Made by a program: the position numbers and the translations under genes. The notes beneath the pieces are model-generated. The model made no database searches. It was not told where the DNA came from and saw nothing but the letters and a program-made list of their open reading frames with translations. Shown piece by piece: positions 3,871 through 27,936 of a stretch of 32,000 nt of DNA; position 1 is the first letter of the stretch, and each line of letters begins with the position of its first letter. Source of the DNA: Candidatus Brocadia sp. (GTDB taxonomy: Bacteria; Planctomycetota; Brocadiia; Brocadiales; Brocadiaceae); assembly GCA_021650915.1 (NCBI GenBank), contig CP091279.1, positions 2,250,001 through 2,282,000 of the forward strand, given 5' to 3'.

Positions 3871-4293
3871 AGCTCCCCTCTAAAAAGAAGGGCTGGGGGG
3901 GTTATGGTTACTTACACGCACCTAAATCCCCTCTCAAGGGGAAATCATCAGCTTGAAATTCTTCTGCATCCATATACATACAAATACCCCAATTTTTCAG
4001 CTAGACAGTGAAAAATAATAGCATAGACCAGCAAATCTTTCAAGGCTTTTCTGTCGGGCAACGCCCCCCAGCCGGTCACTCTGCGCAATGGAATGCTCAT
4101 TGTGCCGTTATCAGTCAATTCCTCATGGCAAACCGCCGAATTGTTCCTTGTAATTTGAGAAATATAGCGGTATGATACTACCTTTATTTTCGTACCGCAG
4201 GAATAATCATTCCGTATTGGCACAAAACCATGGGAACAGGATGTGGAAGAAACAAAGCCAGAAAACGCAGCATCTGAAACGGAAGGCTTGAGA

Positions 4294-5589
4294 ATGCCGC
4301 TAGGCGCGCATCTTGAAGAGTTGCGGCGCCGGGTCGTATATTCTCTTATCGCTATCATTCTCTGTTTTATCGTGTGCTGGTTTTTTAAAGTGCAGATACT
4401 GGACATGGCAAAGAGGCCCCATAAGTTTGCCATGGAAAAGGTTGGCCTCTCAACAGAATTGCAGGTGCTGAGCTATCAGGAGGGCTTCTATGCATATATG
4501 AAGCTGTGCTTCATAACGTCGGTTTTCTTCGCCTATCCCTTTGTGATATACCAGATATGGCAATTCGTGAGCGCCGGGCTCTACCAGCGAGAGCGACGGT
4601 ACGTGCTCTTGTTCCTCCCCGTTTCCTATGCAGCATTTGTGGTGGGAGGGCTTTTTGGCTATTTCCTGCTCATCCCCTTTGGTCTGCAGTTTTTGATCGG
4701 CATTCTTGGCCCCGGCATTCAGCCAATCATTACCATGCGGGACTACGTCTCATTTGTTTTCATGCTGACCGTGGCGCTGGGACTGGTATTCCAGTTGCCG
4801 CTCGTCATGCTGCTCCTCTCAAAGATCCGATTCATTACCCCGGATAAATTTATTGCATGGAGAAAGTATGCCATCCTGGCAATATTTATTATTGCCGCGA
4901 TCGTCACGCCGCCCGATCCTTTTACCCAGTCCATGACCGCCATTCCCATGATTGTCCTCTATGAATTGGGCATCCTCATTGCAAGGCCTACCAGGAAAGG
5001 ATTTTTCTTTTTAGGCGGCATCGTTGGGGGAGGGATCATGATATTGCTGGCGTTGTATTTTTATTTAACCTACAAGGGCGGTGACGTCAACCTGTTCGAT
5101 ACCCGGGGAGAGGTTCAATTTTTGTACCCGGAAGGGCAGGCATGGGAAGAGGTATCAAACCACAGCCATTTCCGGAACGGTATTACCCTGAAGACCGGCA
5201 GCGAAGGAAGAACTGCCCTGTCTACAAAGAAGGGAATTGACATGAGTATGGACGCAAATACCGAAGTGCATATTGCTGATTCCTTGAAGATAAGGCTCAA
5301 ATCAGGCCAAATCCTCGTCTCCGTGAAAGGGTCGGAAATACCCCTGGAAATCGATACACCAAATGGACGGATCAGAACCGAAAGGGGTACCTTGAACATT
5401 GTGGCGAAGGATTTTCTTACCGTCGTGACTGCAGTAAAGGGCGATGCCGTTCTGGTCATGGAAGGTGAAGAAAAAAAGTTGCTGGAGGGACGGCAGCATA
5501 AGATGTCCATCGGCGGTGAACCGGTCGACATCGGGGCGATTATCAATTGGTCTGAAGGAGTGCTCAACAAACCGGATGGAAAAGAATAA
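4294..5589 (+). CDS. tatC: Sec-independent translocase subunit TatC with an extra C-terminal TM segment and a FecR-like periplasmic domain
   Basis: The ORF track opens at GTG 4243. I prefer ATG 4294 (MPLGAHLEELRRR..., the typical TatC N-terminus, with GGAAGG 8 nt upstream). The first ~250 aa form the 6-TM TatC core. An extra TM follows (FFFLGGIVGGGIMILLALYFYL), then ~170 aa that are FecR-like (GITLKTGSEGRTALS...VHIADSLKIRLKSGQILVSV...IDTPNGRIRTERGTLNIV...VKGDAVLV). Confidence 0.85.
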   Translation: MPLGAHLEELRRRVVYSLIAIILCFIVCWFFKVQILDMAKRPHKFAMEKVGLSTELQVLSYQEGFYAYMKLCFITSVFFAYPFVIYQIWQFVSAGLYQRERRYVLLFLPVSYAAFVVGGLFGYFLLIPFGLQFLIGILGPGIQPIITMRDYVSFVFMLTVALGLVFQLPLVMLLLSKIRFITPDKFIAWRKYAILAIFIIAAIVTPPDPFTQSMTAIPMIVLYELGILIARPTRKGFFFLGGIVGGGIMILLALYFYLTYKGGDVNLFDTRGEVQFLYPEGQAWEEVSNHSHFRNGITLKTGSEGRTALSTKKGIDMSMDANTEVHIADSLKIRLKSGQILVSVKGSEIPLEIDTPNGRIRTERGTLNIVAKDFLTVVTAVKGDAVLVMEGEEKKLLEGRQHKMSIGGEPVDIGAIINWSEGVLNKPDGKE

Positions 5590-5706: not shown

Positions 5707-5767
5707 AAAAAGTGTGCCATGACACACTTATGTAACGTCACACAAGTGTGTCATGGCACACTTTTTT
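5707..5767. terminator. bidirectional intrinsic terminator-like hairpin
   Basis: AAAAAGTGTGCCATGACACACTT (5707-5729) pairs with AAGTGTGTCATGGCACACTTTTT (5744-5766). The 18-bp perfect stem is flanked by an A-run and a T-run. Confidence 0.65.
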
Positions 5768-5932
5768 ACGTATCTTTTCAACAAACCGCTCACCTCCATT
5801 TTTATCATTCAAATTACAACCTCAATTTAAAAAAGAGGTTACATCAAATATAACATTCACAGCATTTATTTATCTCTTTGCGGCATTTTGCTTGCTGTTT
5901 AATCAATAACTCAATTGAATAACCGTGTATAT

Positions 5933-6083
5933 CACGAAAAGGTAAACCCTGAGTGATCAGGGGGCGCAAAGTAAAGGATCTTCAATTGCGTTCTGAGTTT
6001 TGATTTTAGAAACGATTTGAGAAGATGGCCTTACTGCCGAAGATGTGTCGCACACTATCTTTGCAGTAAGGCCTTTGTTTTTT
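5933..6083 (+). promoter_or_regulatory. candidate c-di-GMP-I (GEMM-I) riboswitch aptamer plus intrinsic terminator expression platform
   Basis: 5937-5972 reads AAAAGGUAAACC-CUGA-GUGA-UCAGG-GGGCGCAAAGU. Compare the Vc2/Cd1 core GGCAAACC-helix-GNRA-helix-GGACGCAAAGC. A second long imperfect hairpin follows (AUCUUC 5978-5983 pairs with GAAGAU 6021-6026). The terminator is GGCCTTACTGC (6027-6037) / GCAGTAAGGCC (6063-6073) followed by TTTGTTTTTT. Confidence 0.55.
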
Positions 6084-6306
6084 AAAGGATGTTCGGCGGA
6101 TTGTGCTATACCGCAAAAAATCTTTCTTTTCCCCTTTTTATGGAGACATGTTTACAAGTTTTTCTACACCCCCACCTGACTTCGTCGTGAGCGCACAGTT
6201 GAACGACAGAGGGACATGGCGGTGGTGGTTTTGCTGCGTTATGGTTTTTTTCATAACTTTTCCGTATGCTACTAATTTTTTTCTCGTATTAGGAGTTTCA
6301 AGGTTT

Positions 6307-6375
6307 GAGATTCTTCGTCCGTTTCACTCCCTCAGAATGACACCGTTTGTCATTCTGCGGGAAGCGAAGAATCTC
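6307..6375. repeat. palindromic repeat (GAGATTCTTCG..CAGAATGAC / GTCATTCTG..CGAAGAATCTC)
   Basis: Imperfect inverted arms at 6307-6341 and 6349-6375. This produces the SLRMT..VILREAKNL pseudo-peptide in ORF 6103..6387. Confidence 0.7.
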
Positions 6376-6386
6376 ATTAATGTATA

Positions 6387-6484
6387 GAAATCTTAAAGTT
6401 GCGGTTGTAGGGCGACAAGGCTCGTCGCACTACCTTGAGAAAGTCGCCGAAGGCAGCCTAATTAAATGTATAGGAATTTCAATG
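6387..6484. repeat. repeat family R3, full copy (internal GTAGGGCGACAAGGCTCGTCGCACTAC hairpin plus GCCGAAGGCAGCCTAATTAA)
   Basis: About 85% identical to the reverse complement of 12631-12724. A partial copy is at 3819-3870 and a fragment at 6575-6600. Confidence 0.8.
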
Positions 6485-6490
6485 TTTGTT

Positions 6491-6565
6491 GTAGGGGCGA
6501 AGCATTTGCTGATATCAGATTTGAATGTCATCTTATATCCTGGACAGCAAATGCTTCGCCCCTAC
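6491..6565. repeat. repeat family R2 (GTAGGGGCGAAGCATTTGC - ~37 nt - GCAAATGCTTCGCCCCTAC)
   Basis: 19-bp perfect inverted arms. Other copies are at 14855-14928 and 31239-31309. Confidence 0.85.
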
Positions 6566-6616
6566 GTGTGATCGTAAACAAAGTAGCCGAAGGCCTAATT
6601 TAAGGATGGTTTAATT

Positions 6617-8602
6617 ATGAATACTATTTTATTATGTCTCTTCAGCCCAAAAAAGTATCTATGTCTCATCCTGCCGGTATTGTTATTCTGTCTTTTTGTC
6701 AACGCCTCTGCCCACCAGGAAATATCAAAAGAAAAGAACGCTGGCGGAGGACGATTTGCGCGGGACAGTTTGCCACCCAGGCAGTATTTTGAAGACCTTG
6801 CGATCCGGCGTTATGCGGTCGTAGTCGGCATATCAGATTACAAAGACCCGGGAATAGCCGATCTGAAATATGCGGATGCCGATGCGCAGGCATTTTATGA
6901 TTTTCTTACCAGCCCGGCCGGCGGTGATTTTCAGAAAGACCAGGTATTGCTTCTGAAGAATGAGCAGGCGACCCTGAAAAACGTTACCCTGGCCATCACC
7001 AATTTTCTTAAAAGGGCAAAAGACCCTGATTTTGTCGTCATTTTCATGGCATGTCACGGCGAGCCCGAACCAGACCGCCCCGGCAATCTCTACCTGCTTA
7101 TGCATGATTCCGAGCCCGGCAGCCTGTCTGCAACTGCCTATCACATGGAAAACGTCAATGCCGACATGAAACGATACGTTGCGGCAAAAAGACTGATTTT
7201 CTTTGCCGACGCCTGCCACAGTTCCGGGCTTACCGGGGAAATGACAAGCACCAGGGGAGGAGCAAATACGATTCATGCGGCGCTTTCCACCCTCAGGGCA
7301 ACGAGAGAGGGGTGGGGAATTGTCAGCGCAAGCAGGGCGCGCGAGGTCTCCGTAGAGTCCAGCCAGTTTGGCGGCGGTCACGGAGCATTCACCCATTACC
7401 TGCTCGAAGGATTAAAAGGAAAGGCCGACGCAGAAGGAAACAAAAACGGCATCGTTACCCTTGTGGAGGCATTCGATTTCGTAGAAGAAAACGTAAAGAA
7501 GGCAACGCACAACGCTCAGCACCCCGATATCTCGGGAAATTTTGACAACAACCTTCCCCTGGGATTCCCCGGGACAGGAACCGGCGCCAATGAAAGCGCC
7601 CAAAGCAGCGACACTCCACCCCTGGGAATTCTGAAGATTCACGGCGCACCTGAAGGGGCAACGGTATTTATCAAAGGGAAGGAAGTTGGCGCCGCGCCGC
7701 TGGACATAAAACTCGTAAGCGGGGCATATCCGGTTATGATAAAAACAAGAGGCGGCCGTGATGTGTCAGATACCGTATTTATCAATCCGGATGAAATAAC
7801 CGAAATCTGCGCCGAGCAATTCTTCGAACAGGTCTATTTTGGTGAAGACTCGGGCGCTTCCGGTAAAACGCTCCTGGCGTATTCAACCGCAGGCGGACCA
7901 TCGCAGGAATACCCAGGCTCCGGTAATGAAACGGGCGCGATGCCGTCAAAGAGTGAAAAGCCTGATGTTACAAAGACGGATGCCCCGTTGCCCGGCAGCG
8001 CCCTGGCCGTACCGGCAGAAATGATGCATAAGAAGACAGACGTGCAGAAAACAAAGGAAAATATCGATGCGCTTATTAAAGAATTGGAGATCATGGCCAG
8101 GCAGCAGGCCGGTGAAGAAAAACCCATGCCTGCCAAAAAGCCCGGAGAAAAGAGACCCGAATCCATAGCCGCTCCTCACGCCGTCCCCATATCACTGAAG
8201 GAATTTTGCGTAAAAATGGGTGCATTGCCCAGCAGGCACACCACCGTCATGCTCCGCCACAGGATTATCGACGCACTCCTGGCCCAAAACGGCTTGCTGG
8301 TGGTGGAAAGAGACTTGGAAATGCAGGAAGCAATCTTACGGGAACAGCGGCTCGGCGGCTCTGTCCTTGCCGATGAGATGTACAGAATAGGGCTGGGAAA
8401 GATACAAAGCGCCCAATTCCTTTTGTTCGGAGAAGTGTCTCAGGGAGAAAAGCCGGATCAAATCATGGTAAGAATAGAGATCGTTGACACGGCAACGACG
8501 CTCATCAACACGCTGGAACGCACCTTTCAGCGCGAAGAAAATCTGGGAGCCGTGGCGCACGATATCGCCGCAAAGATACGAGCAAAAATTATGGTTCAGT
8601 GA
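6617..8602 (+). CDS. secreted caspase-like cysteine peptidase (C14) with a PEGA domain, a disordered linker and a C-terminal CsgG/TolB-N-like domain
   Basis: 661-aa ORF with a signal peptide (LLFCLFVNASA|HQ). The C14 core is RYAVVVGISDYKD...FMACHGEP (His)...FFADACHSSG (Cys). The PEGA-like segment is LKIHGAPEGATVFIKGKEVGAAPLDIKLVSGAYPVMI. The C-terminus LLVVERDLEMQEAILREQRLGG...FLLFGEV...VRIEIVDTATT resembles the periplasmic CsgG/FlgO/LpoB-type fold. Confidence 0.85.
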   Translation: MNTILLCLFSPKKYLCLILPVLLFCLFVNASAHQEISKEKNAGGGRFARDSLPPRQYFEDLAIRRYAVVVGISDYKDPGIADLKYADADAQAFYDFLTSPAGGDFQKDQVLLLKNEQATLKNVTLAITNFLKRAKDPDFVVIFMACHGEPEPDRPGNLYLLMHDSEPGSLSATAYHMENVNADMKRYVAAKRLIFFADACHSSGLTGEMTSTRGGANTIHAALSTLRATREGWGIVSASRAREVSVESSQFGGGHGAFTHYLLEGLKGKADAEGNKNGIVTLVEAFDFVEENVKKATHNAQHPDISGNFDNNLPLGFPGTGTGANESAQSSDTPPLGILKIHGAPEGATVFIKGKEVGAAPLDIKLVSGAYPVMIKTRGGRDVSDTVFINPDEITEICAEQFFEQVYFGEDSGASGKTLLAYSTAGGPSQEYPGSGNETGAMPSKSEKPDVTKTDAPLPGSALAVPAEMMHKKTDVQKTKENIDALIKELEIMARQQAGEEKPMPAKKPGEKRPESIAAPHAVPISLKEFCVKMGALPSRHTTVMLRHRIIDALLAQNGLLVVERDLEMQEAILREQRLGGSVLADEMYRIGLGKIQSAQFLLFGEVSQGEKPDQIMVRIEIVDTATTLINTLERTFQREENLGAVAHDIAAKIRAKIMVQ

Positions 8603-8618
8603 AAGTGATCCCATCGTT

Positions 8619-9761
8619 ATGAAGAAAAATACCCGGTACACCATACCGCAGCGAAGCTGCAACCACGTCCCCCTTCATGAAGGGGACGGTCAAAACCCTT
8701 GCAAAAAAGGAAACGGTTTATACGGTACTACAATACTCAGATGCACACTGCTTATTGCAGGATTGGTATTTCCCCTGCTCAGCAGGGGAGCCCTTTCAGA
8801 CACCGCAAAGGATACCACACCACCGGTGGTGCACACGGATGTAACACCTGCGGTGGTGCATGATACCCACCTTTTTCTGAGCGGTGAGGCATGTGACAAC
8901 AACGGCATCGCACGGGTGCTGGTGAACGGATGTCCGCTGGAAATCCACACAGGAAGGCGCGTCTCTTTCAATCATCTCCTGCCCCTCAGAGAGGGAAGAA
9001 ATATCGTTACCGTCCAGGCCATTGATGCCAGCGGAAATGCGTCGGTCGTTTCGCCGGTGAAGATCACGAGAAAGGCCTTCGATCTGCCGGAAACCGTTTC
9101 CCGGTATGCCGTTGCCCTGCTTCCGGTCAAGTCCTCCCCGGCGCTTGATATGCCCGGGGAATCAATCCATTCCCTCTTCCTGAAGGCATTCGGCGAAGAA
9201 CCGCAGAGGTTCCATTTTGTGGAACGGGACCCGGCACGGCTTGAAGGAATCCTCCGTGAGCAACGGATCAGTAAAATCGGGCAGATATCCCCCGAAACGG
9301 TCATAAAGATCGGGAAGATCATTGCCGCAGAGGGGCTATTCCTGGTTACGATAGATGAAGACGTCAACGGCATCGGTATTACCCTGCGTCTGGTGGATAC
9401 GGAGACGGGTCGCATACGGGCGCAGGCAAGCGTGCATGATGCGGATAACGGCATGAAAAATCTCGAATGGCTTATCTATGGTCTGTCATTGAAGATCAAG
9501 CGACAGCTTCCCGCGGCGCAGGGGAACGTTATTCGGATTTCAGAAAACGGTTTTTATGTAAACACCGGCGCTGCTCATGGCATTGAGGTAGGGATGAAAT
9601 TATTGCTATTCCGTGAAATCAGGGAAGGGAATTTCGTCTTAAAAGAACCGCTTGACACGATTGCACGGGTGGAGCGGGTGCTGCCGCACATCTGTTTTGT
9701 TACCGTCAGCAGAGAGGGTATTTCCAGGGTGGAAAAAGGAGACCTTGTCCTTGCAAAGTAG
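8619..9761 (+). CDS. secreted Ig-like + CsgG/TolB-N-like + C-terminal beta-barrel domain protein (paralog of the 10061..12220 C-terminal half)
   Basis: The ORF track opens at 8484, overlapping the upstream gene. I prefer ATG 8619 (MKKNTRY...), though the start remains uncertain. A hydrophobic segment follows (LLIAGLVFPLLS). The Ig-like module is PPVVHTD...NGIARVLVNG...NIVTVQAIDASGN. The CsgG-like module is YAVALLPVKS...FHFVERDPARLEGILREQRI...LRLVDTETGRI. Confidence 0.75.
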   Translation: MKKNTRYTIPQRSCNHVPLHEGDGQNPCKKGNGLYGTTILRCTLLIAGLVFPLLSRGALSDTAKDTTPPVVHTDVTPAVVHDTHLFLSGEACDNNGIARVLVNGCPLEIHTGRRVSFNHLLPLREGRNIVTVQAIDASGNASVVSPVKITRKAFDLPETVSRYAVALLPVKSSPALDMPGESIHSLFLKAFGEEPQRFHFVERDPARLEGILREQRISKIGQISPETVIKIGKIIAAEGLFLVTIDEDVNGIGITLRLVDTETGRIRAQASVHDADNGMKNLEWLIYGLSLKIKRQLPAAQGNVIRISENGFYVNTGAAHGIEVGMKLLLFREIREGNFVLKEPLDTIARVERVLPHICFVTVSREGISRVEKGDLVLAK

Positions 9762-10060: not shown

Positions 10061-12220
10061 ATGATAGCCATCCTGCCCCTATTTCTCCTGCCCTTTGCCG
10101 GCTGCACCACGACTTCCCGGATCGGCACGGACAACTGGCGGGATTATTTCAAGCCGGGGCATACCAAAGAGGAAATTGCCCGGGACTTTAATCTTTACCG
10201 GGGCAAGTGGTGGAACTACTACGTACGGGGCCGATGGTTTGCCGAGGGTGGTTTCTATGATGAGGCGGCTCAGGATTTCAGGAAGGCAATCAGCCTGCGC
10301 AGTCAGGATCAGCGTTCTGCCAGGAGCTACGGGATGCATTTCTGGGAATACTTTGCCCACCGCGAGCTGGGGGTTATCTATTATCACCAGGGCAAATACG
10401 AAGACGCCAAAAAGGAGCTTGAAATGTCCCGCTCTACGGCCGATTCTGCCAGGGCCAAGTATTACCTGAATAAAAGCAACGAGGCCATGATAAAGATGAC
10501 GAAGATGGATATCAAACCACCGGAGATCAGAATTACGTCACATACCAACGGCCAGGTTGTCAATACCCCGGCAGCGCACATCAGGGGGGTTGCCACCGAC
10601 GATGCCTACGTAAACGGCATGTCTATCCAGGGCAGAAGGCTGTTCATAGAACTTGCCGAACGGAATCTTTCCTTTGACGAAACCGTTTCCCTGCAGCGGG
10701 GAGAGAACGTGATCAGCATCGAGGCAACCGACCTTTCGGACAAAAGCGCCCGCCAGGATATGAAACTCATGCTCGACCTGCGCCCGCCGGTCTTGTATCT
10801 GGACGATATCCGGATCCAGAAGCGGGACGGACGCAATAGTGCAATTGTTACGGGAACCATCACGGACGACCATGGGGTACAACGCCTTTCAATAAATGAC
10901 ACCGAGATACCCATCACCCCAGGTAAGGAAGTGAAATTTCAGCATGAAATTGTCCTGACCGATGGCCATACCTTCTCCCTGAGGGCAGTCGACGTGGCCG
11001 GAAACGAAACACGGGGCGAAGAATCGTTAGACGTTAAGGCATCGCTCTGGCGCGGCGGCATATGGGATGGACATACCAGGCACATGCACCGGACAAAGGG
11101 TGCACCGGTCATGGTTGCGGCAGGCAAACTGGACAGGGCCGGCGTCAGGAGACTGCTGGCTGCTGGCGGGACAACCACCCAACCTTCCCCCGCAGGCGCT
11201 TCTCACGGGGGCACGGAAAATCCGGGAAAGGGATCAGGAGTGGCTTCTGGTTCGCACGAAACGGCAAGGGACACCATCCCGCCGGTGATCTATACGGATT
11301 TAAAATCTGCAATCGTCCATGATACAAACATCTTCTTCGGCATCCATGCGCACGACGATAACGGCATTGCAAGGCTCTTTGTCAATCAGCAGCCTTTGGA
11401 TATCCGGACTGCGAAGCACGTCTTCTTCAATCACCTGTTAACGCTCAACGAAGGAGAGAACACCGTCGTGGTAAAGGCCGTTGACAGGGAGGGAAACGAA
11501 ACGGAGCTTGCGCCGGTAAAGATTACCAAAAAGGCCTTTTATCTGCTGGAGACGGAGGCCCGGTATACCGTCGCCCTGCTTCCGTTCAGGACGTTTGAAG
11601 AAGACCAGGCGCTTACGGAAACCCTCTACTCCCTGTTGCTCAGGGCATTTGATGAAGAGCCGAAGCGGTTTAACTTTGTGGAACGCGACCTGACAAAACT
11701 GGAGGAGATCCTGCGCGAGCAAAAAATTGCCAACACGGAGCTCACCTCGCCCGACGCGGCCATAAAGGTCGGGAAGATCCGTGCGGCCGATGGCATGCTC
11801 TTTGGCGCGGTGGAGGAGGATTCCCGGGGCATCAGCGTCACCCTGCGGCTGGTCGATACGGAGACCACCCAGGTGCTGGTAAACGTCGATGTCTATGATG
11901 AAGACAAGAACGCGCAGAACCTCGCATGGCTGATGCACGGCCTGTCGCTCAAGGTGAAACGGCAATATCCCCTGGTGCAGGGCGGCGTCATCCGGATCGC
12001 AGGCAATGGATTCCACGTCGATGCCGGCGCAACGAGCGGGATGCTGGTCGGCATGAAACTGCTCATGTTCCGGGAGGTACCGGTGGGAAATCTTGCATTA
12101 AAGGAGCCCCTGTACAGTGTTGCCCGAATCGTGCAGGTGCAGCCAGACACCTCGTTTGCCCGGATAAGCACAAAGGGCATCAAGACGATAAAGAAGAAAG
12201 ACCTGGTTATAACGAAATGA
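10061..12220 (+). CDS. lipoprotein with TPR region, multiple Ig-like domains, a CsgG/TolB-N-like domain and a C-terminal beta-barrel domain
   Basis: The ORF track opens at 9938. I prefer ATG 10061, which gives a lipoprotein signal MIAILPLFLLPFAGC. The TPR-like segment is GGFYDEAAQDFRKAISL...YHQGKYEDAKKELE. There are repeated Ig-like modules (PPEIRITSH..., PPVLYLDD..., PPVIYTD...). The C-terminal ~330 aa is roughly half-identical (by eye) to 8619..9761 (FNFVERDLTKLEEILREQKI...LRLVDTETTQV). Confidence 0.8.
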   Translation: MIAILPLFLLPFAGCTTTSRIGTDNWRDYFKPGHTKEEIARDFNLYRGKWWNYYVRGRWFAEGGFYDEAAQDFRKAISLRSQDQRSARSYGMHFWEYFAHRELGVIYYHQGKYEDAKKELEMSRSTADSARAKYYLNKSNEAMIKMTKMDIKPPEIRITSHTNGQVVNTPAAHIRGVATDDAYVNGMSIQGRRLFIELAERNLSFDETVSLQRGENVISIEATDLSDKSARQDMKLMLDLRPPVLYLDDIRIQKRDGRNSAIVTGTITDDHGVQRLSINDTEIPITPGKEVKFQHEIVLTDGHTFSLRAVDVAGNETRGEESLDVKASLWRGGIWDGHTRHMHRTKGAPVMVAAGKLDRAGVRRLLAAGGTTTQPSPAGASHGGTENPGKGSGVASGSHETARDTIPPVIYTDLKSAIVHDTNIFFGIHAHDDNGIARLFVNQQPLDIRTAKHVFFNHLLTLNEGENTVVVKAVDREGNETELAPVKITKKAFYLLETEARYTVALLPFRTFEEDQALTETLYSLLLRAFDEEPKRFNFVERDLTKLEEILREQKIANTELTSPDAAIKVGKIRAADGMLFGAVEEDSRGISVTLRLVDTETTQVLVNVDVYDEDKNAQNLAWLMHGLSLKVKRQYPLVQGGVIRIAGNGFHVDAGATSGMLVGMKLLMFREVPVGNLALKEPLYSVARIVQVQPDTSFARISTKGIKTIKKKDLVITK

Positions 12221-12859: not shown

Positions 12860-14209
12860 ATGAAAACAAAACAAATCCTTTTTCTTATCATCCTATTTCT
12901 GCCCATCGCAGCGCCCTTCACAAAATCCTCTTTTGCTCAACAAGTACCTACCTCCATAAATGCGGTGCCTCTTCCTGTTGGCTCTGGCGCCAGGGCATTG
13001 GGCATGGGCGGCGCCTTTATTGCCGTCGCCGACGATGCCACTGCGGCATCGTGGAATCCCGGCGGCCTGACACAATTGGAAAGACCAGAACTCTCTGTGG
13101 TAGGTTCCTTCTTATCCACACACATGGATTTTGATCCTGGCAATACAGGTTTCTTCTCCCTTGGCAACGAGGATGTATCGCGGGGTGATCTGAATTATGC
13201 CAGTGTTGCATATCCATTCAAGGTGTTAGGAAAAAATCTGGTTGCTGCATTGAATTATCAACAGAAATACGATTTTCATATGAATGTTGATTTTGATTTG
13301 ACAGATGATAGTTTGGGAATTAATGAAGATATAAATATTGATTTTAAATCAAAAGGTGGAATAGGTGCCCTGACGCCTGCCATCGCCATGCAGGTGATGC
13401 CCAAACTATCCATAGGGGTAGCGGTAAATATCTTTACTGACGAATTTTTCGACGATTTTGCCTGGAAAGAAACATTGAAAATGTCAGGATTTGGTACCGA
13501 CGGAGTGGATACAATTAATGACACTGCAAAATCAGTTAGGGAATTCAAAAATTTTCAGGCAGTAAACGTAACGGCAGGCATGCTGTGGGATGTATGGGAA
13601 GAGGAGGAGAAGTGCCTTACCTTTGGCGCCGTGTATCATTCCCCATATACGGCAGATGTTGACCGTATTATAGATTCTCAAAGTACCAGCAATTTTTCAG
13701 GTTCAATTTCTACTTTTTCAAATCATATTAGGGAACATTTCGAGATAGACTATCCTATGTCTATTGGTGCTGGGTGGGGCTTCCGTTACAGCGATGCATT
13801 ATCCCTTTCTATGGATGTGACGTGGACGGATTGGTCTGAATATGAACAGGAGAATAAAGAAACCGGGGAAGAAACCCGTCCCCTGGGACTTGGTGTATCA
13901 ACTGACAGGGACATTGATGATACCTACGCTGTAAGGTTTGGCACAGAGTACCTGATTTTCCGGCAAAAGATGATTATCCCCGTACGGGGTGGACTTTTTT
14001 ACGAACCCCGTCCATCCCTGGATGACCCTACAGACGTATATGGCGTTAGTGTGGGGAGCGGCATTACCTTCAAGAGGTTCAGTATTGACGGTGCATATCA
14101 GTTCCGGTGGGCGAATGATGTGGACGGAGAAGATTTTGGTGAACTTCAAGGAACTCACTTTGATCTCCAGGAGCACCTGTTCCTGGCCTCCGTCATTGTC
14201 TATTTCTAA
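12860..14209 (+). CDS. outer-membrane beta-barrel protein, FadL/OmpP1/PorV-like
   Basis: I prefer ATG 12860 (MKTKQILFLIILFLPIAAPFTKSSFA|QQ signal peptide). The N-terminal plug-like motif GSGARALGMGGAFIAVADDATAASWNPGGL is typical of the FadL/PorV-type family. Amphipathic strands alternate throughout, and the C-terminus is aromatic (...ASVIVYF). Confidence 0.75.
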   Translation: MKTKQILFLIILFLPIAAPFTKSSFAQQVPTSINAVPLPVGSGARALGMGGAFIAVADDATAASWNPGGLTQLERPELSVVGSFLSTHMDFDPGNTGFFSLGNEDVSRGDLNYASVAYPFKVLGKNLVAALNYQQKYDFHMNVDFDLTDDSLGINEDINIDFKSKGGIGALTPAIAMQVMPKLSIGVAVNIFTDEFFDDFAWKETLKMSGFGTDGVDTINDTAKSVREFKNFQAVNVTAGMLWDVWEEEEKCLTFGAVYHSPYTADVDRIIDSQSTSNFSGSISTFSNHIREHFEIDYPMSIGAGWGFRYSDALSLSMDVTWTDWSEYEQENKETGEETRPLGLGVSTDRDIDDTYAVRFGTEYLIFRQKMIIPVRGGLFYEPRPSLDDPTDVYGVSVGSGITFKRFSIDGAYQFRWANDVDGEDFGELQGTHFDLQEHLFLASVIVYF

Positions 14210-14210
14210 G

Positions 14211-14272
14211 TTCCCCTCTAACAAGGGGTGTGTCATAGCTCCCCTCTATTAAGAGGGGTAACGGTGTGTGTC
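14211..14272. repeat. repeat family R5: tandem CCCCTCT-loop-AG(A)GGGG hairpins with GGTGTGTG flank
   Basis: CCCCTCTAACAAGGGG (14213-14228) and CCCCTCTATTAAGAGGGG (14241-14258). Related copies are at 15041-15085, 15268-15290 + 15543-15572, and 17844-17948. Confidence 0.75.
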
Positions 14273-14351
14273 TCGCAACTAAAAAAGGCATGGAGGGTGT
14301 ACTCCACCTTTATTCATACATACAAGGTTGAAAAGGAGGGAAAAAGTGAGT

Positions 14352-14750
14352 ATGAAAAATAGAAACGTGCGCTTTTATGGGCTGATGGCAGGATTCATTT
14401 TGTTCTTCAGCATATTAACCTGCGGGTGTATAACAATTACTATTTATGATAGTGATTGTTGTCAGTGTCCTCATGTAACCGGTGAAGGAATTCCAGGAGT
14501 TTATCCTATGGGAAGGATTTGGGGATATATCAAGAATAACTCGGGACAACCAATTGCTAACGCACAAATTACTATTACTCCTGGTACAGGAGTAAGTACT
14601 TCAAATTCGGCAGGAAAATATGTAACTTCTTTTGTAGATTACGGTTTGTATACATTAACAGTCACAGCTAATGGTTATCAACCTGGAGGGGGTCAAGTAA
14701 ACGTTAATGCTTTGTCAGTTCGGAAGGACTATACGCTAAATCCACAATAA
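14352..14750 (+). CDS. small membrane-anchored or lipoprotein-like protein with a CarboxypepD_reg-like beta-sandwich domain
   Basis: RBS AAGGAGG at 14333-14339. Candidate starts are GTG 14346 or ATG 14352; the track's TTG 14328 lies upstream of the RBS. Signal/anchor is FILFFSILTCGCITI. The domain reads GYIKNNSGQPIANAQITITPG...AGKYVTSFVDYGLYTLTVTANGYQP. Confidence 0.7.
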   Translation: MKNRNVRFYGLMAGFILFFSILTCGCITITIYDSDCCQCPHVTGEGIPGVYPMGRIWGYIKNNSGQPIANAQITITPGTGVSTSNSAGKYVTSFVDYGLYTLTVTANGYQPGGGQVNVNALSVRKDYTLNPQ

Positions 14751-14797
14751 CAGTAATCTTTAATCTCCACGTGGGTTCTGGGGGCTGGAGTTTAAAG

Positions 14798-14955
14798 TTT
14801 TGTAACACTTTAGTTTTTTGAAAAATTACAATAATAACGATGTTGCCGCACGGTGTAGGGGCGAAGCATTTGCCATACATTGGCATAAAGGTATTCACAC
14901 CCCAAGCAGGCAAATGCTTCGCCCCTACCTTTTCAAAAAACTAAAGTGTTACAAA
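14798..14955. repeat. 158-bp nested palindromic element: 27-bp outer inverted arms (1 mismatch) enclosing a family R2 unit
   Basis: Outer arms are TTTGTAACACTTTAGTTTTTTGAAAAA (14798-14824) and CTTTTCAAAAAACTAAAGTGTTACAAA (14929-14955). Inner arms are GTAGGGGCGAAGCATTTGCC / GGCAAATGCTTCGCCCCTAC (14855-14928). Confidence 0.85.
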
Positions 14956-15040
14956 GTTTTGTGTTTTGAGTTGTGGGTTGAGGTTAGATGTTGGAAATTG
15001 GAGGTTGGAGTTGAGAGTTACGAATTGTGTGTTCGGGAGT

Positions 15041-15085
15041 GTGTTATAGCTCCCCTCTATTAAGAGGGGGAAGGGGGTGTGTCTT
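15041..15085. repeat. repeat family R5 hairpin (CCCCTCTATTAAGAGGGG plus GGGGGTGTGT flank)
   Basis: Near-identical to 14236-14272. This explains the shared ..CVIAPLY ends of two spurious track ORFs. Confidence 0.75.
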
Positions 15086-15713: not shown

Positions 15714-16700
15714 ATGAAATATGTAATCCGGCGGCAATCATTCAAGGCACATGTTACGATGTGTCTGTTCATAACGTTAATTTCTACCTTGCCATTAATA
15801 GGTTCTGCATGTACTAAAGGAGCAAGTGAACCGCTAGCACCATCACCGGACAGCCCCGTGCCCAAAGAAACGCCCAGGGAAGGTGCTGTTGAACCAACGC
15901 AATCACAGGATACAACAAGTGTTGCGAGGCCAGCGCCATCAAAGCAACCAAAGGATTCAATCGATATGTCCTCTGAGGTTAAAAGCATTGGGGGCATTAC
16001 ATGGCAGGGAGATTCTCTCTGGGTGTTGGATGATGAGAGGAAAATAATCGATCGATTTGATACTACTTTAGAGGAACTTTCCCCTGACCATAAATATTCA
16101 ATTGATCTTACACAGTCAAGCGCTTTTAGTTTGAAAAAATTCAAAGGTCTGGCCTATGACAAAGAAGCCGAAGCACTCTGGGTTGCCGCTGAAGAGACAG
16201 ATATAGATCCGAAGAAAATGGTTCCGATGCTGATTAAGATTAATCTTGTCAACAGACAGACGGAACTTATAAAGATGGAGATTCCCGCAAAGAAAGGGTT
16301 TAAGTCCATTGAGGGCATTGCATGGGACAAGAAAAGAGAAAGCCTCTGGGTTGCCATTTACGCAGGATTTTCGAGCTCATTAAATCAGATCAATCCTAAA
16401 ACCAGACAAATCACAAAAAGTATCTTCTCTGATAGTTATCCCAAAGGTATTGCAACGGATGGAGAGCATCTTTGGAGTATTTGTTACAACGGAGAGGAAT
16501 TCCCTTCCGCAATAGATCAGAGAATAATACAGCCTGAAGAGCATAAAATGTTACGTTCGCGTGAATTTATTAAAGACATACCGGAAGCAGAACCCATTAG
16601 CCTTGTTTTTGATGGTAATGATCTCTGGTATGCAGATAAAAAAACAAAGCGTGTTATAAGGTTTATACAGCCCAATAAGAAACCTCTTCAATTGAAATAA
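15714..16700 (+). CDS. lipoprotein with a 5-bladed beta-propeller (glutamine cyclotransferase/NHL-like repeats)
   Basis: Strong RBS AAGGAGGAG before ATG 15714. Signal LPLIGSAC, then a Pro/Ser-rich linker. Five repeats end in an LW motif: DSLWVLD, EALWVAA, ESLWVAI, EHLWSIC, NDLWYAD. Confidence 0.75.
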   Translation: MKYVIRRQSFKAHVTMCLFITLISTLPLIGSACTKGASEPLAPSPDSPVPKETPREGAVEPTQSQDTTSVARPAPSKQPKDSIDMSSEVKSIGGITWQGDSLWVLDDERKIIDRFDTTLEELSPDHKYSIDLTQSSAFSLKKFKGLAYDKEAEALWVAAEETDIDPKKMVPMLIKINLVNRQTELIKMEIPAKKGFKSIEGIAWDKKRESLWVAIYAGFSSSLNQINPKTRQITKSIFSDSYPKGIATDGEHLWSICYNGEEFPSAIDQRIIQPEEHKMLRSREFIKDIPEAEPISLVFDGNDLWYADKKTKRVIRFIQPNKKPLQLK

Positions 16701-16729: not shown

Positions 16730-17761
16730 ATGCAAAGATTTTTAAAGAGATTTTCCTATATCTTTATGATATGCCTTGTCCTTTCCGGAGGCTGTATCAC
16801 AGTTGAATACAGACGTGGACCTATTCCAGAACATCTGTCAATGGGGGAACATGCTCATAGTTGTTATTGTGGTTGTTGTGATATATCTGGACCTCGACCA
16901 CCACCTGTCCTATCACCCGCATCCGAATATAAACATGCCGTGTTAATCTGTGCAGGGGTAACGAATGCAGACCGACAAAGGTATAATTCAGCATATTGGT
17001 ATGATCTTATGAGTCAATATCTGATGCTGAGAGAGCGTGGGTTTAATGATGAGAATATTCATGTACTTTATGGTTATGATGGAGAAGATTACTATCCCGG
17101 ACTTTTAGATTATAACTCTGCACATTTGTTTGGTAAGAAAATTACTGATATGGCTATTTCTAAAGCGAATATTGAATCAGTATTCCAGGCATTAGGTGGT
17201 AAAAGAAGTGATGTAAATTGTGTAAGTCGTGCCCTAACTGATGAGGATTATTTGTATATCTGGTGGATGGGCCACGGCGGTTCTGATCCAGGTACTTGCA
17301 ATCTTTACTTGCCCATTAGTGTTACGGGTGAAGAATTTACTGACGTAGAATTGAGTAACTGTATTAATCAGGTTTCTCATTATAAAAAAAGAGTTGTCGC
17401 CGTAATGACCTGTTTCTCGAGTGGTATTCTCGATGATATGATAAACGAAAAAGGTGTTAATACAGTTACCCTTGCTTCATCATCCTGTGACGAATATTCA
17501 TATGATATCTGGCCGACCTGTGATCGCCGTCCTCATGCAGAATTTAATTATAAACTCACAGAGGCCATACGTCAGATGGATATATGCAATAAGCCACTTA
17601 AAAAAGATCCAGATACTAATCCAAAAGATGGTTATGTATCACTGGCGGAGGCATGTGATTATATTGCGCCGCCAATGAGAAACCCAACGGCCCCTCGCAA
17701 AATTAGTGACCCTGATAAGATAAGTGATTCGACTTATTTTAACGAGCCAAATACGCCTTAA
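16730..17761 (+). CDS. clan CD cysteine peptidase, legumain (C13)-like, lipoprotein-type signal
   Basis: 343-aa ORF with signal MICLVLSGGC. Candidate catalytic His is in YIWWMGHGGSD and Cys in VVAVMTCFSSG, in the His-then-Cys order and spacing typical of the caspase/legumain fold. HAVLICAGV matches the N-terminal beta-strand. Confidence 0.65.
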   Translation: MQRFLKRFSYIFMICLVLSGGCITVEYRRGPIPEHLSMGEHAHSCYCGCCDISGPRPPPVLSPASEYKHAVLICAGVTNADRQRYNSAYWYDLMSQYLMLRERGFNDENIHVLYGYDGEDYYPGLLDYNSAHLFGKKITDMAISKANIESVFQALGGKRSDVNCVSRALTDEDYLYIWWMGHGGSDPGTCNLYLPISVTGEEFTDVELSNCINQVSHYKKRVVAVMTCFSSGILDDMINEKGVNTVTLASSSCDEYSYDIWPTCDRRPHAEFNYKLTEAIRQMDICNKPLKKDPDTNPKDGYVSLAEACDYIAPPMRNPTAPRKISDPDKISDSTYFNEPNTP

Positions 17762-18471: not shown

Positions 18472-19572
18472 ATGAAACAATACTCTGAAAATGAACTAGA
18501 TGTTTTGTTGGACATCCTTGAAAGGTATGATAAGGAATTACAGGTTGAAGGTGTCTATTATATGGATGTTGGATACAGATTTAAAGATGGACAGCGGGAC
18601 GATCAACTAGTGTGCAGACATATTAATTACAAATTATATATTGTGGACAATTTTAGCTATATCGCGCCGTAAAACAGCATTTATATGTTTCGTTATTAAT
18701 ATGTCTCTACACTAGCAATACGTGTTCATACGAAGGCAAAACCGAGGAGTACCGTGGACGTGTCGAAACAGATCCCTGAAATAATAGAAGGACATCCTAC
18801 TTGCGTGATCAAATATAATTCTCAGACACCCCCAGTGGAAGTCCCTGCAGATGTGCGAATACGTGATATTCAAAATAATTGGCAAAGACGTAATCAGCGT
18901 TTTGAGACTTTAGTAGGGGGCATTGCAGTCTGGAATTCTCAATTCAAGCACGAGTGTCAAATCCCCGGTACGCTTGGAGCAATAGTCTTTCATGCTGCCA
19001 CCTCGCAATTTATGGGCTTATCAAACTATCATGTCCTCGTTCTCAATAAACAGGGAAAGGCAGAAGGGAAAAAAGGAGATACTATTATGCAGGGGAACTT
19101 TAATGAGTACCCCCCTAATCGGAATAATAGCATTGGCACTCTTTTCAAATGGAATAAGAAACTCGACTGCGCCATTTGTGCTTTAAGAGATTATTCGGAG
19201 GTGGGAGAGATTTTAGACTGTTCTAAGAGACCACAAGGGGCAATATCACCTCTGGTGGGGATGAAAGTCATCAAATCCGGCATGGCAACGGGACTTACCC
19301 GCGGGATTGTTGATGGTGTTAGCCGTACGGATAAATCATTTACCGTGATTCCTGATCCTGGTAATCCAAGTCCTACCGGTGAAATTAGCACTGGTGGGAA
19401 TTCTGGTTCTGTGTGGCTGGAATTTGAAAGTTTTTGTGCCGTAGGACTTCATTATGATGGAGAAAAGAACTCAGACCCAGGAGCTGAAAGAGCGTGGGCG
19501 AAGCAGATGACTGAGGTGGCGAAAGAGTTAGAGATTGAATTTACAACAGGGATCACAGAGATACGTGTATGA
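18472..19572 (+). pseudogene. chymotrypsin-fold (S1) serine protease interrupted by a 105-bp MITE insertion
   Basis: ORF 18472..18672 and ORF 18754..19572 share a frame. Deleting 105 bp (element plus one copy of the duplicated CTAG) joins ...YRFKDGQRDDQL to AIRVHTKAKPRSTVDVSKQIPEII... without a stop. Catalytic candidates are His in LSNYHVLV, Asp in LDCAICAL and Ser in GGNSGSVW. A GTG restart at 18754 could still yield a truncated product. Confidence 0.75.
18607..18715. mobile_element. 109-bp MITE-like element, copy 1 (21-bp terminal inverted repeats CTAGTGTGCAGACATATTAAT / ATTAATATGTCTCTACACTAG)
   Basis: The reverse complement matches 22352-22460 at 103 of 109 positions. It is flanked by, or ends in, CTAG. 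It supplies the premature TAA (18670-18672) that truncates the protease ORF. Confidence 0.85.
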
Positions 19573-25651: not shown

Positions 25652-25720
25652 CAGCCATATCTTTCACCATTGTCTCTGAATTCTATAATCTCGTATTACC
25701 TTTTTCATCAGCGTGCATTT

Positions 25721-27906: not shown

Positions 27907-27936
27907 AATCCTTGCGGCAAAGGATTACCTTTTTTG
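27907..27936 (+). terminator. intrinsic terminator for the kinase gene, overlapping the shc stop codon
   Basis: AATCCTT (27907-27913), loop GCGGCA, AAGGATT (27920-27926), then ACCTTTTTT. Confidence 0.5.

Follow-up and report, generated by a model that had tools for sequence, protein, structure and literature searches.

A predicted secreted caspase-fold protease with a CsgG/LpoB-like C-terminal module, encoded behind a candidate c-di-GMP riboswitch in Candidatus Brocadia

What would a caspase-fold protein do in the envelope of a bacterium, and to what would it be attached? Discussion of bacterial caspase homologues has mostly centred on cytoplasmic proteases of cell death or defence; a secreted, envelope-docked member that is controlled by a second messenger and conserved in every anammox genus would point to envelope remodelling or signalling. 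The question is raised by a gene for a 661 amino acid protein (the target protein) of the anammox bacterium Candidatus Brocadia sp., which we analysed within 32,000 nucleotides of contig CP091279.1 (assembly GCA_021650915.1, positions 2,250,001 to 2,282,000, forward strand), referred to below as the window. A sequence-only reading of this DNA had described the product as a secreted polypeptide that joins a C14 caspase core with an intact His/Cys dyad, a PEGA β-sandwich, a linker and a C-terminal module related to envelope lipoproteins. On balance we favour, with modest confidence, a cyclic di-GMP (c-di-GMP)-induced periplasmic protease of Arg/Lys type that is docked at the outer membrane and acts there as an effector or transducer; docking is probably through the C-terminal module onto an outer-membrane complex.

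The caspase core and its dyad were borne out by domain scans, conservation and modelled structure. Pfam Peptidase_C14 (PF00656) matches residues 64-307 with an E-value of 2.3e-17 and 63.9 bits, the cut-off being 21.4. Across 20 aligned full-length orthologues, all from Brocadiales and with 42-75 % identity, both His147 (FMACHGEP, nucleotides 7055-7057) and Cys200 (FFADACHSSG, nucleotides 7214-7216) are invariant in 20 of 20, and Gly148, Asp198 and His201 are likewise invariant. Cys200 is surrounded by the metacaspase-type motif DACHSSG, and alignment of the orthologue profile to Arabidopsis metacaspase-4 (AtMC4) sets ‘achGePeP’ against ‘SGHGTRLP’ and ‘DaChsagl’ against ‘DSCHSGGL’, which are the catalytic His and Cys. 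The D-x-C-H-S-G motif, with Asp two residues before Cys, suggests cleavage after Arg or Lys. The loop following Cys200 (residues 201-235) is modelled with low confidence and holds a nearly invariant Arg213-Gly214; by likeness to autoprocessing orthocaspases Arg213 is a candidate self-cleavage site.

An AlphaFold2 (AF2) model of the full-length protein has a mean predicted local distance difference test score (pLDDT) of 59.6, with values of 75-95 in the caspase core and ~75 in the PEGA sandwich. Searched with Foldseek against the PDB, it best matches MALT1 ‘caspase-Ig3’ constructs (E 2.4e-9, ~400 columns including the β-sandwich), with further matches to Geobacter GSU0716 (E 3e-8), yeast Yca1, AtMC4 and animal caspases. 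At the sequence level nothing significant emerged from the PDB for the caspase domain or for the profiles of the module and of the full-length protein (best AtMC4, E 0.028), so these relatives were found by fold comparison alone. A CHAT match in the target protein reaches only E 0.016 and lies beneath the C14 match. Sequence and model together predict that the protein is secreted and is a caspase-fold cysteine protease of orthocaspase or metacaspase type.

Secretion, as had been proposed, is indicated by a Sec-type signal peptide whose hydrophobic stretch, residues 14-28 at the N-terminus, is the only one in the protein. Equivalent N-termini are present in the orthologues. The cleavage site was assigned by eye; no lipobox was found in the N-terminus and the signal is of the SPI type. 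Public entries carry a protein of 100 % identity from Candidatus Brocadia fulgida/sp. under the labels ‘hypothetical protein’, ‘caspase family protein’ and ‘putative peptidase’, and ‘PEGA domain-containing’ protein is a further public name within the family. The origin of this protein agrees with the phylum, Planctomycetota, to which the sequence-only reading had pointed.

The PEGA assignment also held, PF08308 matching residues 337-397 (E 2.1e-8, 34.4 bits against 20.8). The AF2 model places seven strands at residues 336-399, the literal motif is present in APEGATV, and in the Foldseek comparison the caspase and the PEGA sandwich align jointly with the caspase-Ig3 tandem of MALT1. The adjoining region had been described as a low-complexity linker of ~130 amino acids. 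A linker it is, but not a uniform one: residues ~401-467 are disordered and include an insert of ~60 amino acids restricted to this Brocadia subclade, residues 468-497 (nucleotides 8018-8107) form a conserved helix, QKTKENIDALIKELE, and residues 498-520 are a spacer rich in Lys, Pro and Glu.

The C-terminal module falls under the threshold of Pfam CsgG (PF03783), which matches residues 550-609 with 17.9 bits against a cut-off of 20.8 and over profile positions 44-100 of 210 only. A separate AF2 model of residues 476-661 has a β-α-β-α-β3-α topology with core pLDDT of 70-89, and Foldseek matches it to the PelC dodecamer (best, E 2.5e-5), GNA1162, the CsgG pre-pore, PelBC, LpoB, CT253, TolB and PqiC. 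An exhaustive profile search of 1.84 billion representatives recovered 5,595 proteins at E ≤ 1e-3 and 275 at E ≤ 1e-10, and the nearest non-anammox matches, multi-module proteins among them, give values of 1e-20 to 1e-58 for Pfam CsgG, LpoB and FlgO; the region of the VERD...ILREQ...GK motif matches the same three families. When the module alignment was used in a word-indexed search, nearly all matches were fragments from anammox bacteria. From its modelled fold, these profile matches and the matches between partner families given below, three independent lines in all, the module is a member of the CsgG/LpoB/FlgO/PelC/TolB-N-like fold superfamily. The AF2 topology of its ~140 amino acids contains none of the transmembrane β-hairpin insertions of CsgG. 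Being short, soluble, free of such hairpins and C-terminal on a non-lipidated protein, it is not a curli-type CsgG channel and is a short soluble domain of PelC/LpoB/FlgO type. The original description of a CsgG/TolB-N-like module therefore stands at the level of the superfamily, and fails at the Pfam CsgG cut-off and as a channel.

That the module recurs in the next two genes was confirmed by BLASTP against gene 2 (E 8e-6, 37 % over 67 amino acids) and gene 3 (E 2e-11, 35 % over 96 amino acids), in which Pfam CsgG reaches 23.6 and 29.3 bits respectively, both above threshold. A profile built from the modules of the caspase family alone matches 111 of 111 partner-family modules. Median scores, compared as a possible clue to the origin of the target protein's module, were 32 bits for the modules of signalling partners, 34 for those of lipoproteins and 41 for anammox lipoproteins. 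The module is also found fused to FGE-sulfatase, to FG-GAP/β-helix and in multi-module arrays, and behaves as a general envelope-docking adaptor. Two proteins (P0142 and P0234) have FGE-sulfatase domains fused to arrays of the CsgG/LpoB-like module, and P0118 is an example of FGE-sulfatase with a caspase domain. FGE-sulfatase is a frequent fusion partner of bacterial caspase domains (PMC3501461), and these cases hint at a shared envelope context for the FGE-sulfatase, caspase and module families.

We surveyed the conservation of the cluster using sequence look-ups and two collection scans, with genes labelled by local hidden Markov models (HMMs). The order caspase-module protein, TPR-Ig-module lipoprotein (gene 3) and FadL-like outer-membrane protein (OMP), with or without an upstream CHASE2-cyclase, was found at ~40 Brocadiales loci and in all anammox genera sampled. 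Two paralogous cluster types can be distinguished. Type A (Kuenenia, Brocadia, Anammoxibacter and groundwater Brocadiales) consists of a CHASE2-nucleotide cyclase, the C14-PEGA-module protein, the TPR-Ig-module lipoprotein and the FadL/Toluene_X OMP, its caspase protein having ~720-750 amino acids and an additional N-terminal β domain. Type B (this window, other Brocadia and Jettenia) has no cyclase: a C14-PEGA-module protein of ~645-665 amino acids is followed, in some loci after gene 2, by gene 3 and the FadL-like OMP, and the array continues 3′ of the OMP with a CarboxypepD_reg-like, a propeller-like and a Peptidase_C13 lipoprotein. Gene 2, for which a start at the ATG at 8619 is presumed, shares 52 % identity over 320 amino acids with the C-terminal half of gene 3 and is present only in the closest Brocadia loci; by this comparison it is a Brocadia-specific partial duplicate of gene 3. 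Among anammox loci anchored on gene 3 and with adequate upstream sequence, a single one (L112) is without a caspase gene.

Full-length relatives of the target protein are confined to Brocadiales, beyond which the caspase core alone is found, at 40-48 % identity, in many phyla. At the 60 closest non-anammox caspase loci neither the module nor a FadL-like OMP was present (0 of 60), indicating that caspase core and envelope context were joined specifically in Brocadiales.

The extra domain of the type-A proteins (e.g. residues ~60-160 of P0068) is a conserved, β-rich region of ~100 amino acids with the pattern GKVWL...ELKKGD.LEV...TIVYF; it has no convincing match in Pfam and always co-occurs with the adjacent CHASE2-cyclase. 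A FecR-like identity, which would have linked it to the known CHASE2-FecR operons (PMC5192318), was considered and found no support: hhalign against the FecR-like domain encoded in the window gave a probability of 0.2 and Pfam only stray weak matches.

The lipoprotein of gene 3, the partner common to all these sets, belongs to a widespread family, in which the ‘GC’ of the lipobox is kept in the alignment consensus and whose public labels are hypothetical, TPR, ‘TolB-like’ and ‘CsgG/HfaB family’, with examples from Nitrospirae and Kiritimatiellae; ~60 of the top 150 representatives found with the module profile have the gene-3 architecture. A metagenome scan identified 53 loci outside anammox bacteria at which a full-length member of the family is encoded, at 31-35 % identity. 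Where at least 3.5 kb was available on both sides (13 loci), a second module-bearing protein lies within 5 kb in 11 and a FadL-like OMP within 6 kb in 11. The commonest Pfam architecture of the second protein is Guanylate_cyc+CHAT+TPR+module (~1,070 amino acids), the others being Guanylate_cyc+TPR+module, CHAT+TPR+module and Pkinase+TPR+module. One transmembrane helix is predicted between the cytoplasmic domain or domains and the TPR+module part in 29 of 30 second proteins (one of these, from L158, has a weak second transmembrane match inside the module), and these 29 are predicted to be single-pass signalling proteins of N-in topology, with the module as their periplasmic end. The remaining one, P0285 at L007, is a C14+module protein with an N-terminal hydrophobic segment and with a FadL-like OMP and an extracytoplasmic function (ECF) sigma factor nearby; its caspase is predicted to be periplasmic, as in anammox bacteria. 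At L090 a CHAT/C25+module protein adjoins the lipoprotein gene, again with an ECF sigma factor nearby, so that two further independent lineages join a clan-CD peptidase to the module beside the lipoprotein gene. In contrast to the N-in single-pass partners the target protein has a signal peptide only, is without TPR and has its enzyme domain facing the periplasm; it and P0285 are topological variants of the module-bearing partner.

Synteny, both within Brocadiales and at 11 of the 13 well-flanked foreign loci, lends strong support to the proposal that the proteins with the module are parts of one envelope structure; their physical co-assembly is a prediction. The most informative observations lie outside what the sequence-only reading had covered: that the module terminates receptor-type cyclases, CHAT proteins and kinases, that the sister cluster includes a CHASE2-cyclase, and that a c-di-GMP riboswitch is found upstream of the target gene.

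This riboswitch, a match of 53.5 bits to Rfam RF01051 (gathering score 35), is the only Rfam element found in the window. It is followed by a terminator-type expression platform, a hairpin at -33.7 kcal/mol (z = -6.2) and a T-run, and in the Rfam alignment the 3′ strand of an aptamer helix, GGCCUUACU, doubles as the 5′ arm of the hairpin. Aptamer and terminator are thus mutually exclusive, which gives the geometry of an ON switch, and the leader sequence is consistent with a ligand-dependent ON switch. Binding of c-di-GMP and control of the target gene are predicted. Homologous aptamers end 55-90 nucleotides upstream of the caspase orthologue in 5 of 5 Brocadia type-B loci (L006, L009, L010, L011 and L023), where the ATG lies ~20 nucleotides past the T-run, and a leader alignment shows aptamer, hairpin and T-run to be conserved, the hairpin and T-run in six Brocadia loci. 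The Rfam scan detected no aptamer upstream of the type-A clusters.

In the window alone among these leaders, a block of repeat elements is inserted between riboswitch and start codon, flanked by TTTAAAGGATG and TTTAAGGATGG and with repeats and palindromes at 6379-6486 and 6491-6565. Repeats resembling miniature inverted-repeat transposable elements are found in the window at 6097-6600, 14794-14960, 14209-14273 and 15036-15084; the palindrome GTAGGGGCGAAGCATTTGC(N33-34)GCAAATGCTTCGCCCCTAC occurs at 6491-6565 and again at 14855-14928, and a 49-nucleotide direct repeat begins at 14225 and 15036.

A second c-di-GMP-I riboswitch was observed downstream of the FadL-like gene in Brocadia type-A loci (L005 16572-16685 and L017 16149-16262). 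In L017 it precedes a gene for a secreted protein of 514 amino acids with a surface-protein-like C-terminal region, so that c-di-GMP-controlled surface genes flank the type-A cluster too. In anammox granules c-di-GMP correlates with matrix production (PMC11224092).

Table 1 Features of the target gene, its leader and the neighbouring genes in the window
Feature	Coordinates	Strand	Description
c-di-GMP-I class riboswitch aptamer	5931-6041	+	Leader of the target gene; Rfam RF01051, full model 1-87
Terminator-type expression platform	6027-6084	+	Hairpin 6027-6073, then T-run; 5′ arm is the 3′ strand of an aptamer helix
Repeat-element insertion	6097-6600		~500 nucleotides between riboswitch and start codon; not in orthologous leaders
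Target coding sequence	6617-8602	+	661 amino acids: signal peptide, C14 caspase core, PEGA, helix-bearing linker, CsgG/PelC/LpoB-like module
Sec-type signal peptide	6617-6712	+	Residues 1-32; KK, hydrophobic core YLCLILPVLLFCLFV, cleavage between NASA and HQ; equivalent N-termini in orthologues
Peptidase_C14 caspase-fold domain	6806-7567	+	Residues ~64-317; Pfam, invariant columns, Foldseek, AtMC4 alignment
PEGA β-sandwich	7622-7813	+	Residues ~336-399; PF08308; model strands
Linker	7814-8176	+	Residues 400-520; disordered insert, conserved helix, Lys/Pro/Glu spacer
CsgG/PelC/LpoB/TolB-N-like module	8177-8599	+	Residues 521-661, ~140 amino acids; Pfam, AF2/Foldseek, profile searches
Gene 2	8619-9761	+	Secreted; Ig-like domain, module (nucleotides ~9096-9518), C-terminal β domain
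Gene 3	10061-12220	+	Lipoprotein (lipobox LPFAGC); TPR, three Ig-like domains (Glucodextran_B/Big_13), module (nucleotides ~11555-11977), C-terminal β domain of ~80 amino acids
FadL/Toluene_X-type outer-membrane β-barrel	12860-14209	+	Signal peptide; Pfam Toluene_X (PF03349), E 1.5e-18
Small probable lipoprotein, CarboxypepD_reg-like β-sandwich	14328-14750	+	Type-B accessory; counterparts in L004 and L006; weakly supported
Probable lipoprotein, β-propeller-like (SdiA-regulated-like)	15714-16700	+	Type-B accessory; Pfam E 4.4e-6; syntenic in L004, L006, L010, L011, L023
Probable lipoprotein, Peptidase_C13 (legumain-like, clan CD)	16730-17761	+	Type-B accessory; Pfam E 2.2e-9; syntenic in L004, L006, L010, L011, L023

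Taken together these data suggest how the locus might work. High c-di-GMP, as in an aggregated or biofilm state, would relieve termination and turn the operon on, and the protease would reach the periplasm by export. There the flexible linker and the C-terminal module may let it dock next to the FadL-like barrel, on the inner side of the outer membrane, where the outer-membrane lipoprotein carries a homologous module. If the protease domains cluster on this scaffold, the PEGA sandwich packing as Ig3 does in MALT1, activation may follow. Self-cleavage after the conserved Arg213 is also possible, and the docked protease would cut envelope or surface proteins after basic residues; in type A the CHASE2 receptor is a possible target. 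Links to cyclic-nucleotide signalling recur in different forms: type A has its CHASE2-cyclase, type B its c-di-GMP riboswitch, and in other phyla the cyclases are fused. Given the module-bearing membrane partners in other phyla and the CHASE2-cyclase beside the sister cluster, the complex is best seen as a cross-envelope sensing or relay device, of which the output in this window would be periplasmic proteolysis and not a cytoplasmic signal. A broader version, which we put forward tentatively and consider unlikely as a whole, is that barrel, TPR-Ig-module lipoprotein and module-bearing partner form a phylum-spanning cross-envelope apparatus with interchangeable outputs (cyclic nucleotides, CHAT proteolysis or Ser/Thr phosphorylation). 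In anammox bacteria it would have been rewired to a periplasmic caspase-like protease that is docked by the module, activated by clustering and directed at a periplasmic target, which in the sister cluster would be the CHASE2 domain of the adjacent cyclase.

Several points weigh against the favoured proposal of a docked, c-di-GMP-induced protease. Protease activity, co-assembly through module-module binding, localisation and substrates are all predictions from sequence and structural models, and those models are of moderate quality (mean pLDDT ~60, cores 70-90). Some homologues of the module form rings (PelC, CsgG, PqiC) and others are monomers (LpoB, TolB-N), so that the fold does not imply oligomerisation. 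In most of the non-anammox relatives the clan-CD domain is cytoplasmic; the anammox topology is thus a rearrangement, and function may not transfer. Signal peptides of anammox bacteria also target the anammoxosome, and the periplasmic location of the target protein therefore rests on its lipoprotein and β-barrel neighbours. As to the riboswitch, the Rfam scan did not detect the aptamer in the type-B locus of Jettenia (L004), two of the orthologous aptamers best match the variant model RF03167, and the insertion of ~500 nucleotides may weaken riboswitch control in this strain.

The top structural matches of the module, PelC and PelBC, raise the alternative of a secretion or assembly machine in which a PelC/CsgG-like ring of modules sits beneath a pore in the outer membrane, the TPR lipoprotein is a scaffold (compare PelB/PelC and CsgG/CsgE/CsgF) and the caspase matures an exported polymer or giant surface protein. 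A TPR protein and an outer-membrane barrel are indeed in the cluster, very large surface-type proteins are encoded near five of the loci (L005, L003, L007, L125 and L126), and matrix export systems are typically c-di-GMP-controlled. However, the barrel is of the FadL/Toluene_X type, plugged small-molecule channels, and not a Pel, curli or Wza-type exporter; the module, as described above, has no transmembrane hairpins and matches only part of the CsgG profile; and domain scans of the cluster revealed no genes for a glycosyltransferase, an amyloid subunit or an ATPase. The main argument comes from the partners elsewhere, whose swappable cytoplasmic cyclase, kinase and CHAT outputs speak for signalling and favour a sensing or relay apparatus over an export machine, which we regard as unlikely. 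Nor do we think it at all likely that the target protein is a free periplasmic housekeeping or quality-control protease, its module binding peptidoglycan or another envelope component and the synteny reflecting co-regulation only. The LpoB and TolB-N homologues are monomers that bind other envelope proteins, and the module is fused to many unrelated domains (FGE-sulfatase, FG-GAP, β-helix), two points in favour of such a protease; against it, the set of module-bearing enzyme, TPR-Ig-module lipoprotein and FadL-like OMP recurs across phyla with differing enzymes, the 60 closest non-anammox caspase loci, which are without the module, have none of these neighbours, and the links to riboswitch and cyclase argue for a conditional role.

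The occurrence of two clan-CD peptidases (C14 and C13) in one cluster recalls the type IX secretion system (T9SS), and a sortase-like surface-attachment complex could be envisaged in which a clan-CD peptidase (compare PorU) on a FadL-like barrel (compare PorV/PorQ) cuts and re-attaches surface proteins, with the C13 lipoprotein as second transpeptidase. Partners at L090 and L149 weakly match Peptidase_C25, and the OMP gives partial matches in NCBIfam, but its PorV, PorQ and BamG scores are all well under their cut-offs: PorV_fam at 51.6 bits (cut-off 90), T9SS_OM_PorV at 19.9 (250) and PorQ at 17.8 (220), together with sub-threshold matches to PorV2 and BamG, a further score in this group being 70 against 250. 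With no other T9SS genes in the window, no C-terminal sorting domain recognised in the neighbours and modules that point to the periplasmic face rather than the cell surface, this reading appears improbable. Least probable of all, and in our view very remote, is a caspase of programmed cell death or anti-phage defence comparable to EACC1-type caspases, craspases or gasdermin-activating proteases. The NCBIfam EACC1-type caspase model (caspase_w_EACC1, NF047832) does match with 97.6 bits and a generic ‘caspase’ model of PADLOC with E 3.4e-14, and the TPR-CHAT domain of DdvA controls a defence island. The former score is, however, below the cut-off of 140, and domain scans of the window revealed no EACC1-type partner among the neighbouring genes; PADLOC matches nothing beyond the caspase core (positions 3-165 of 453) and none of the neighbours. 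The target protein is moreover secreted, has no NTPase, gasdermin, TIR or nuclease partner, and belongs to a cluster that is vertically conserved in all anammox genera, unlike patchy defence islands.

That the domain combination is not a characterised system agrees with the generic public names and with the literature, in which we found no description of the combination, of a periplasmic caspase topology, of the riboswitch control or of the three-gene apparatus. Searches on anammox with caspase, PEGA with caspase, CsgG with metacaspase and COG5616/TolB-like with cyclase likewise returned nothing relevant. The individual parts, orthocaspase, PEGA, CsgG/LpoB-like module, FadL-like OMP and GEMM-I riboswitch, are all of known kinds. 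With the orthocaspases and metacaspases (AtMC4, Yca1, GSU0716) the target protein shares the caspase-hemoglobinase fold, the His-Cys dyad, the D-x-C-H-S-G motif (DSCHSGG in AtMC4), a single chain and a post-Cys loop with a conserved Arg; characterised members, however, are cytoplasmic, whereas the target protein is secreted and carries in addition PEGA and the envelope-docking module. The paracaspase MALT1, whose caspase-Ig3 tandem is the best structural match to the full-length model, is Arg-specific and activated by scaffold oligomerisation. It nevertheless shares only 12-15 % identity with the target protein, is eukaryotic and cytoplasmic with death and Ig domains, and has a poorly matched domain orientation (root mean square deviation ~20 Å). 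Orthocaspases are reported to cleave after basic residues (PMC6426788).

A further precedent is the anti-sigma factor DdvA, whose periplasmic TPR-CHAT domain has been proposed as a site-1 protease (PMC11506125). Common to both are a clan-CD caspase-like domain in the periplasm, cross-envelope signalling and a proposed signal-induced protease, and ECF sigma factors are encoded at two related loci, L007 and L090. DdvA, however, is anchored in the membrane, its anti-sigma domain binds zinc and its active site is incomplete; a CsgG-like module is absent from it, as are a lipoprotein partner and a FadL-like OMP. The target protein is soluble and C14 rather than CHAT; domain scans of its locus found neither a sigma factor nor an anti-sigma domain, and no TPR in the protein itself. 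The fold of the module is shared with the PelC, CsgG, LpoB, FlgO, TolB-N and PqiC domains, which are periplasmic, lie close to the outer membrane and in several cases oligomerise beneath outer-membrane proteins, but in the target protein it is C-terminal on a non-lipidated enzyme, and the partner genes for polysaccharide, curli or penicillin-binding proteins are absent. In Sinorhizobium meliloti the outer-membrane β-barrel NsrA is needed upstream of the receptor cyclases CyaD1, CyaD2 and CyaK, two of them with CHASE2 (PMC7529298), and the type-A cluster of anammox bacteria also pairs an outer-membrane barrel with a CHASE2-cyclase. No protease or CsgG-like module is described in that pathway, however, NsrA is much larger with a different barrel, and the cluster in the window is without a cyclase. 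The leader of the target gene, finally, has the RF01051 aptamer and terminator-type platform of the c-di-GMP-I (GEMM-I) regulons. Known regulons of this class are enriched in surface, adhesion and motility genes, and a secreted, adhesin-trimming protease of Clostridioides difficile is governed by a c-di-GMP riboswitch; we know of no caspase-family gene reported downstream of such a riboswitch.

Through this locus a large, uncharacterised family comes into view, made up of receptor-type cyclases, CHAT proteases and kinases that end in a periplasmic CsgG/LpoB-like module and are paired with a dedicated lipoprotein and a FadL-like barrel, and the three-gene apparatus offers a concrete model for how signals cross the outer membrane to receptors. 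The riboswitch provides a direct experimental handle and the swappable outputs are natural controls for mechanism. Were the rewired apparatus to exist as outlined above, it would be the first proteolytic relay from the outer membrane to a nucleotide cyclase and include the first caspase-family gene under a c-di-GMP riboswitch. Anammox bacteria are industrially valuable largely through their growth as aggregates and granules.

Further features of the window and of the clusters were observed alongside. The C13 and propeller-like lipoprotein genes (Table 1) show synteny with type-B clusters only, and the presence of a second clan-CD peptidase (C13) in the same operon-like array as C14 is unusual. 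In L006, from another Brocadia, the intergenic region that separates the gene-3 orthologue from the FadL-like gene holds a match to the small RNA Acido-Lenti-1 (15869-15914, minus strand, 44.9 bits against 37); the Rfam scan gave no equivalent in the window. Upstream of the target gene, at 4243-5589 (+), one open reading frame (ORF) joins TatC (six transmembrane helices, E 9.5e-66) to a C-terminal FecR-like domain (E 1.8e-6), with extra predicted hydrophobic segments between the two, and appears to encode an unusual translocase-sensor fusion; the same fusion precedes the type-B cluster of the three closest Brocadia genomes (L009, L010 and L023) but not that of Jettenia. Just past it, at 5707-5766, a near-perfect palindrome of 30+30 nucleotides without spacer and with A/T runs at its flanks looks like a bidirectional intrinsic terminator. 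Further downstream, a 272 amino acid ORF (18754-19572, +) has no Pfam or PADLOC match and no signal peptide, and carries a GNSGS motif that recalls the GDSGG of chymotrypsin-type serine proteases. A reverse transcriptase/maturase of the group II intron type is encoded at 21040-22206 (+; RVT_1 E 2.6e-40, GIIM E 1e-16), no group II intron RNA family being found in the window at the Rfam gathering score. A Ser/Thr protein kinase of 735 amino acids (25670-27877, +) has a long unannotated C-terminal half, in which the local HMM did not detect the module, and adjoins a gene for a squalene-hopene cyclase at 27925-29976 (-).

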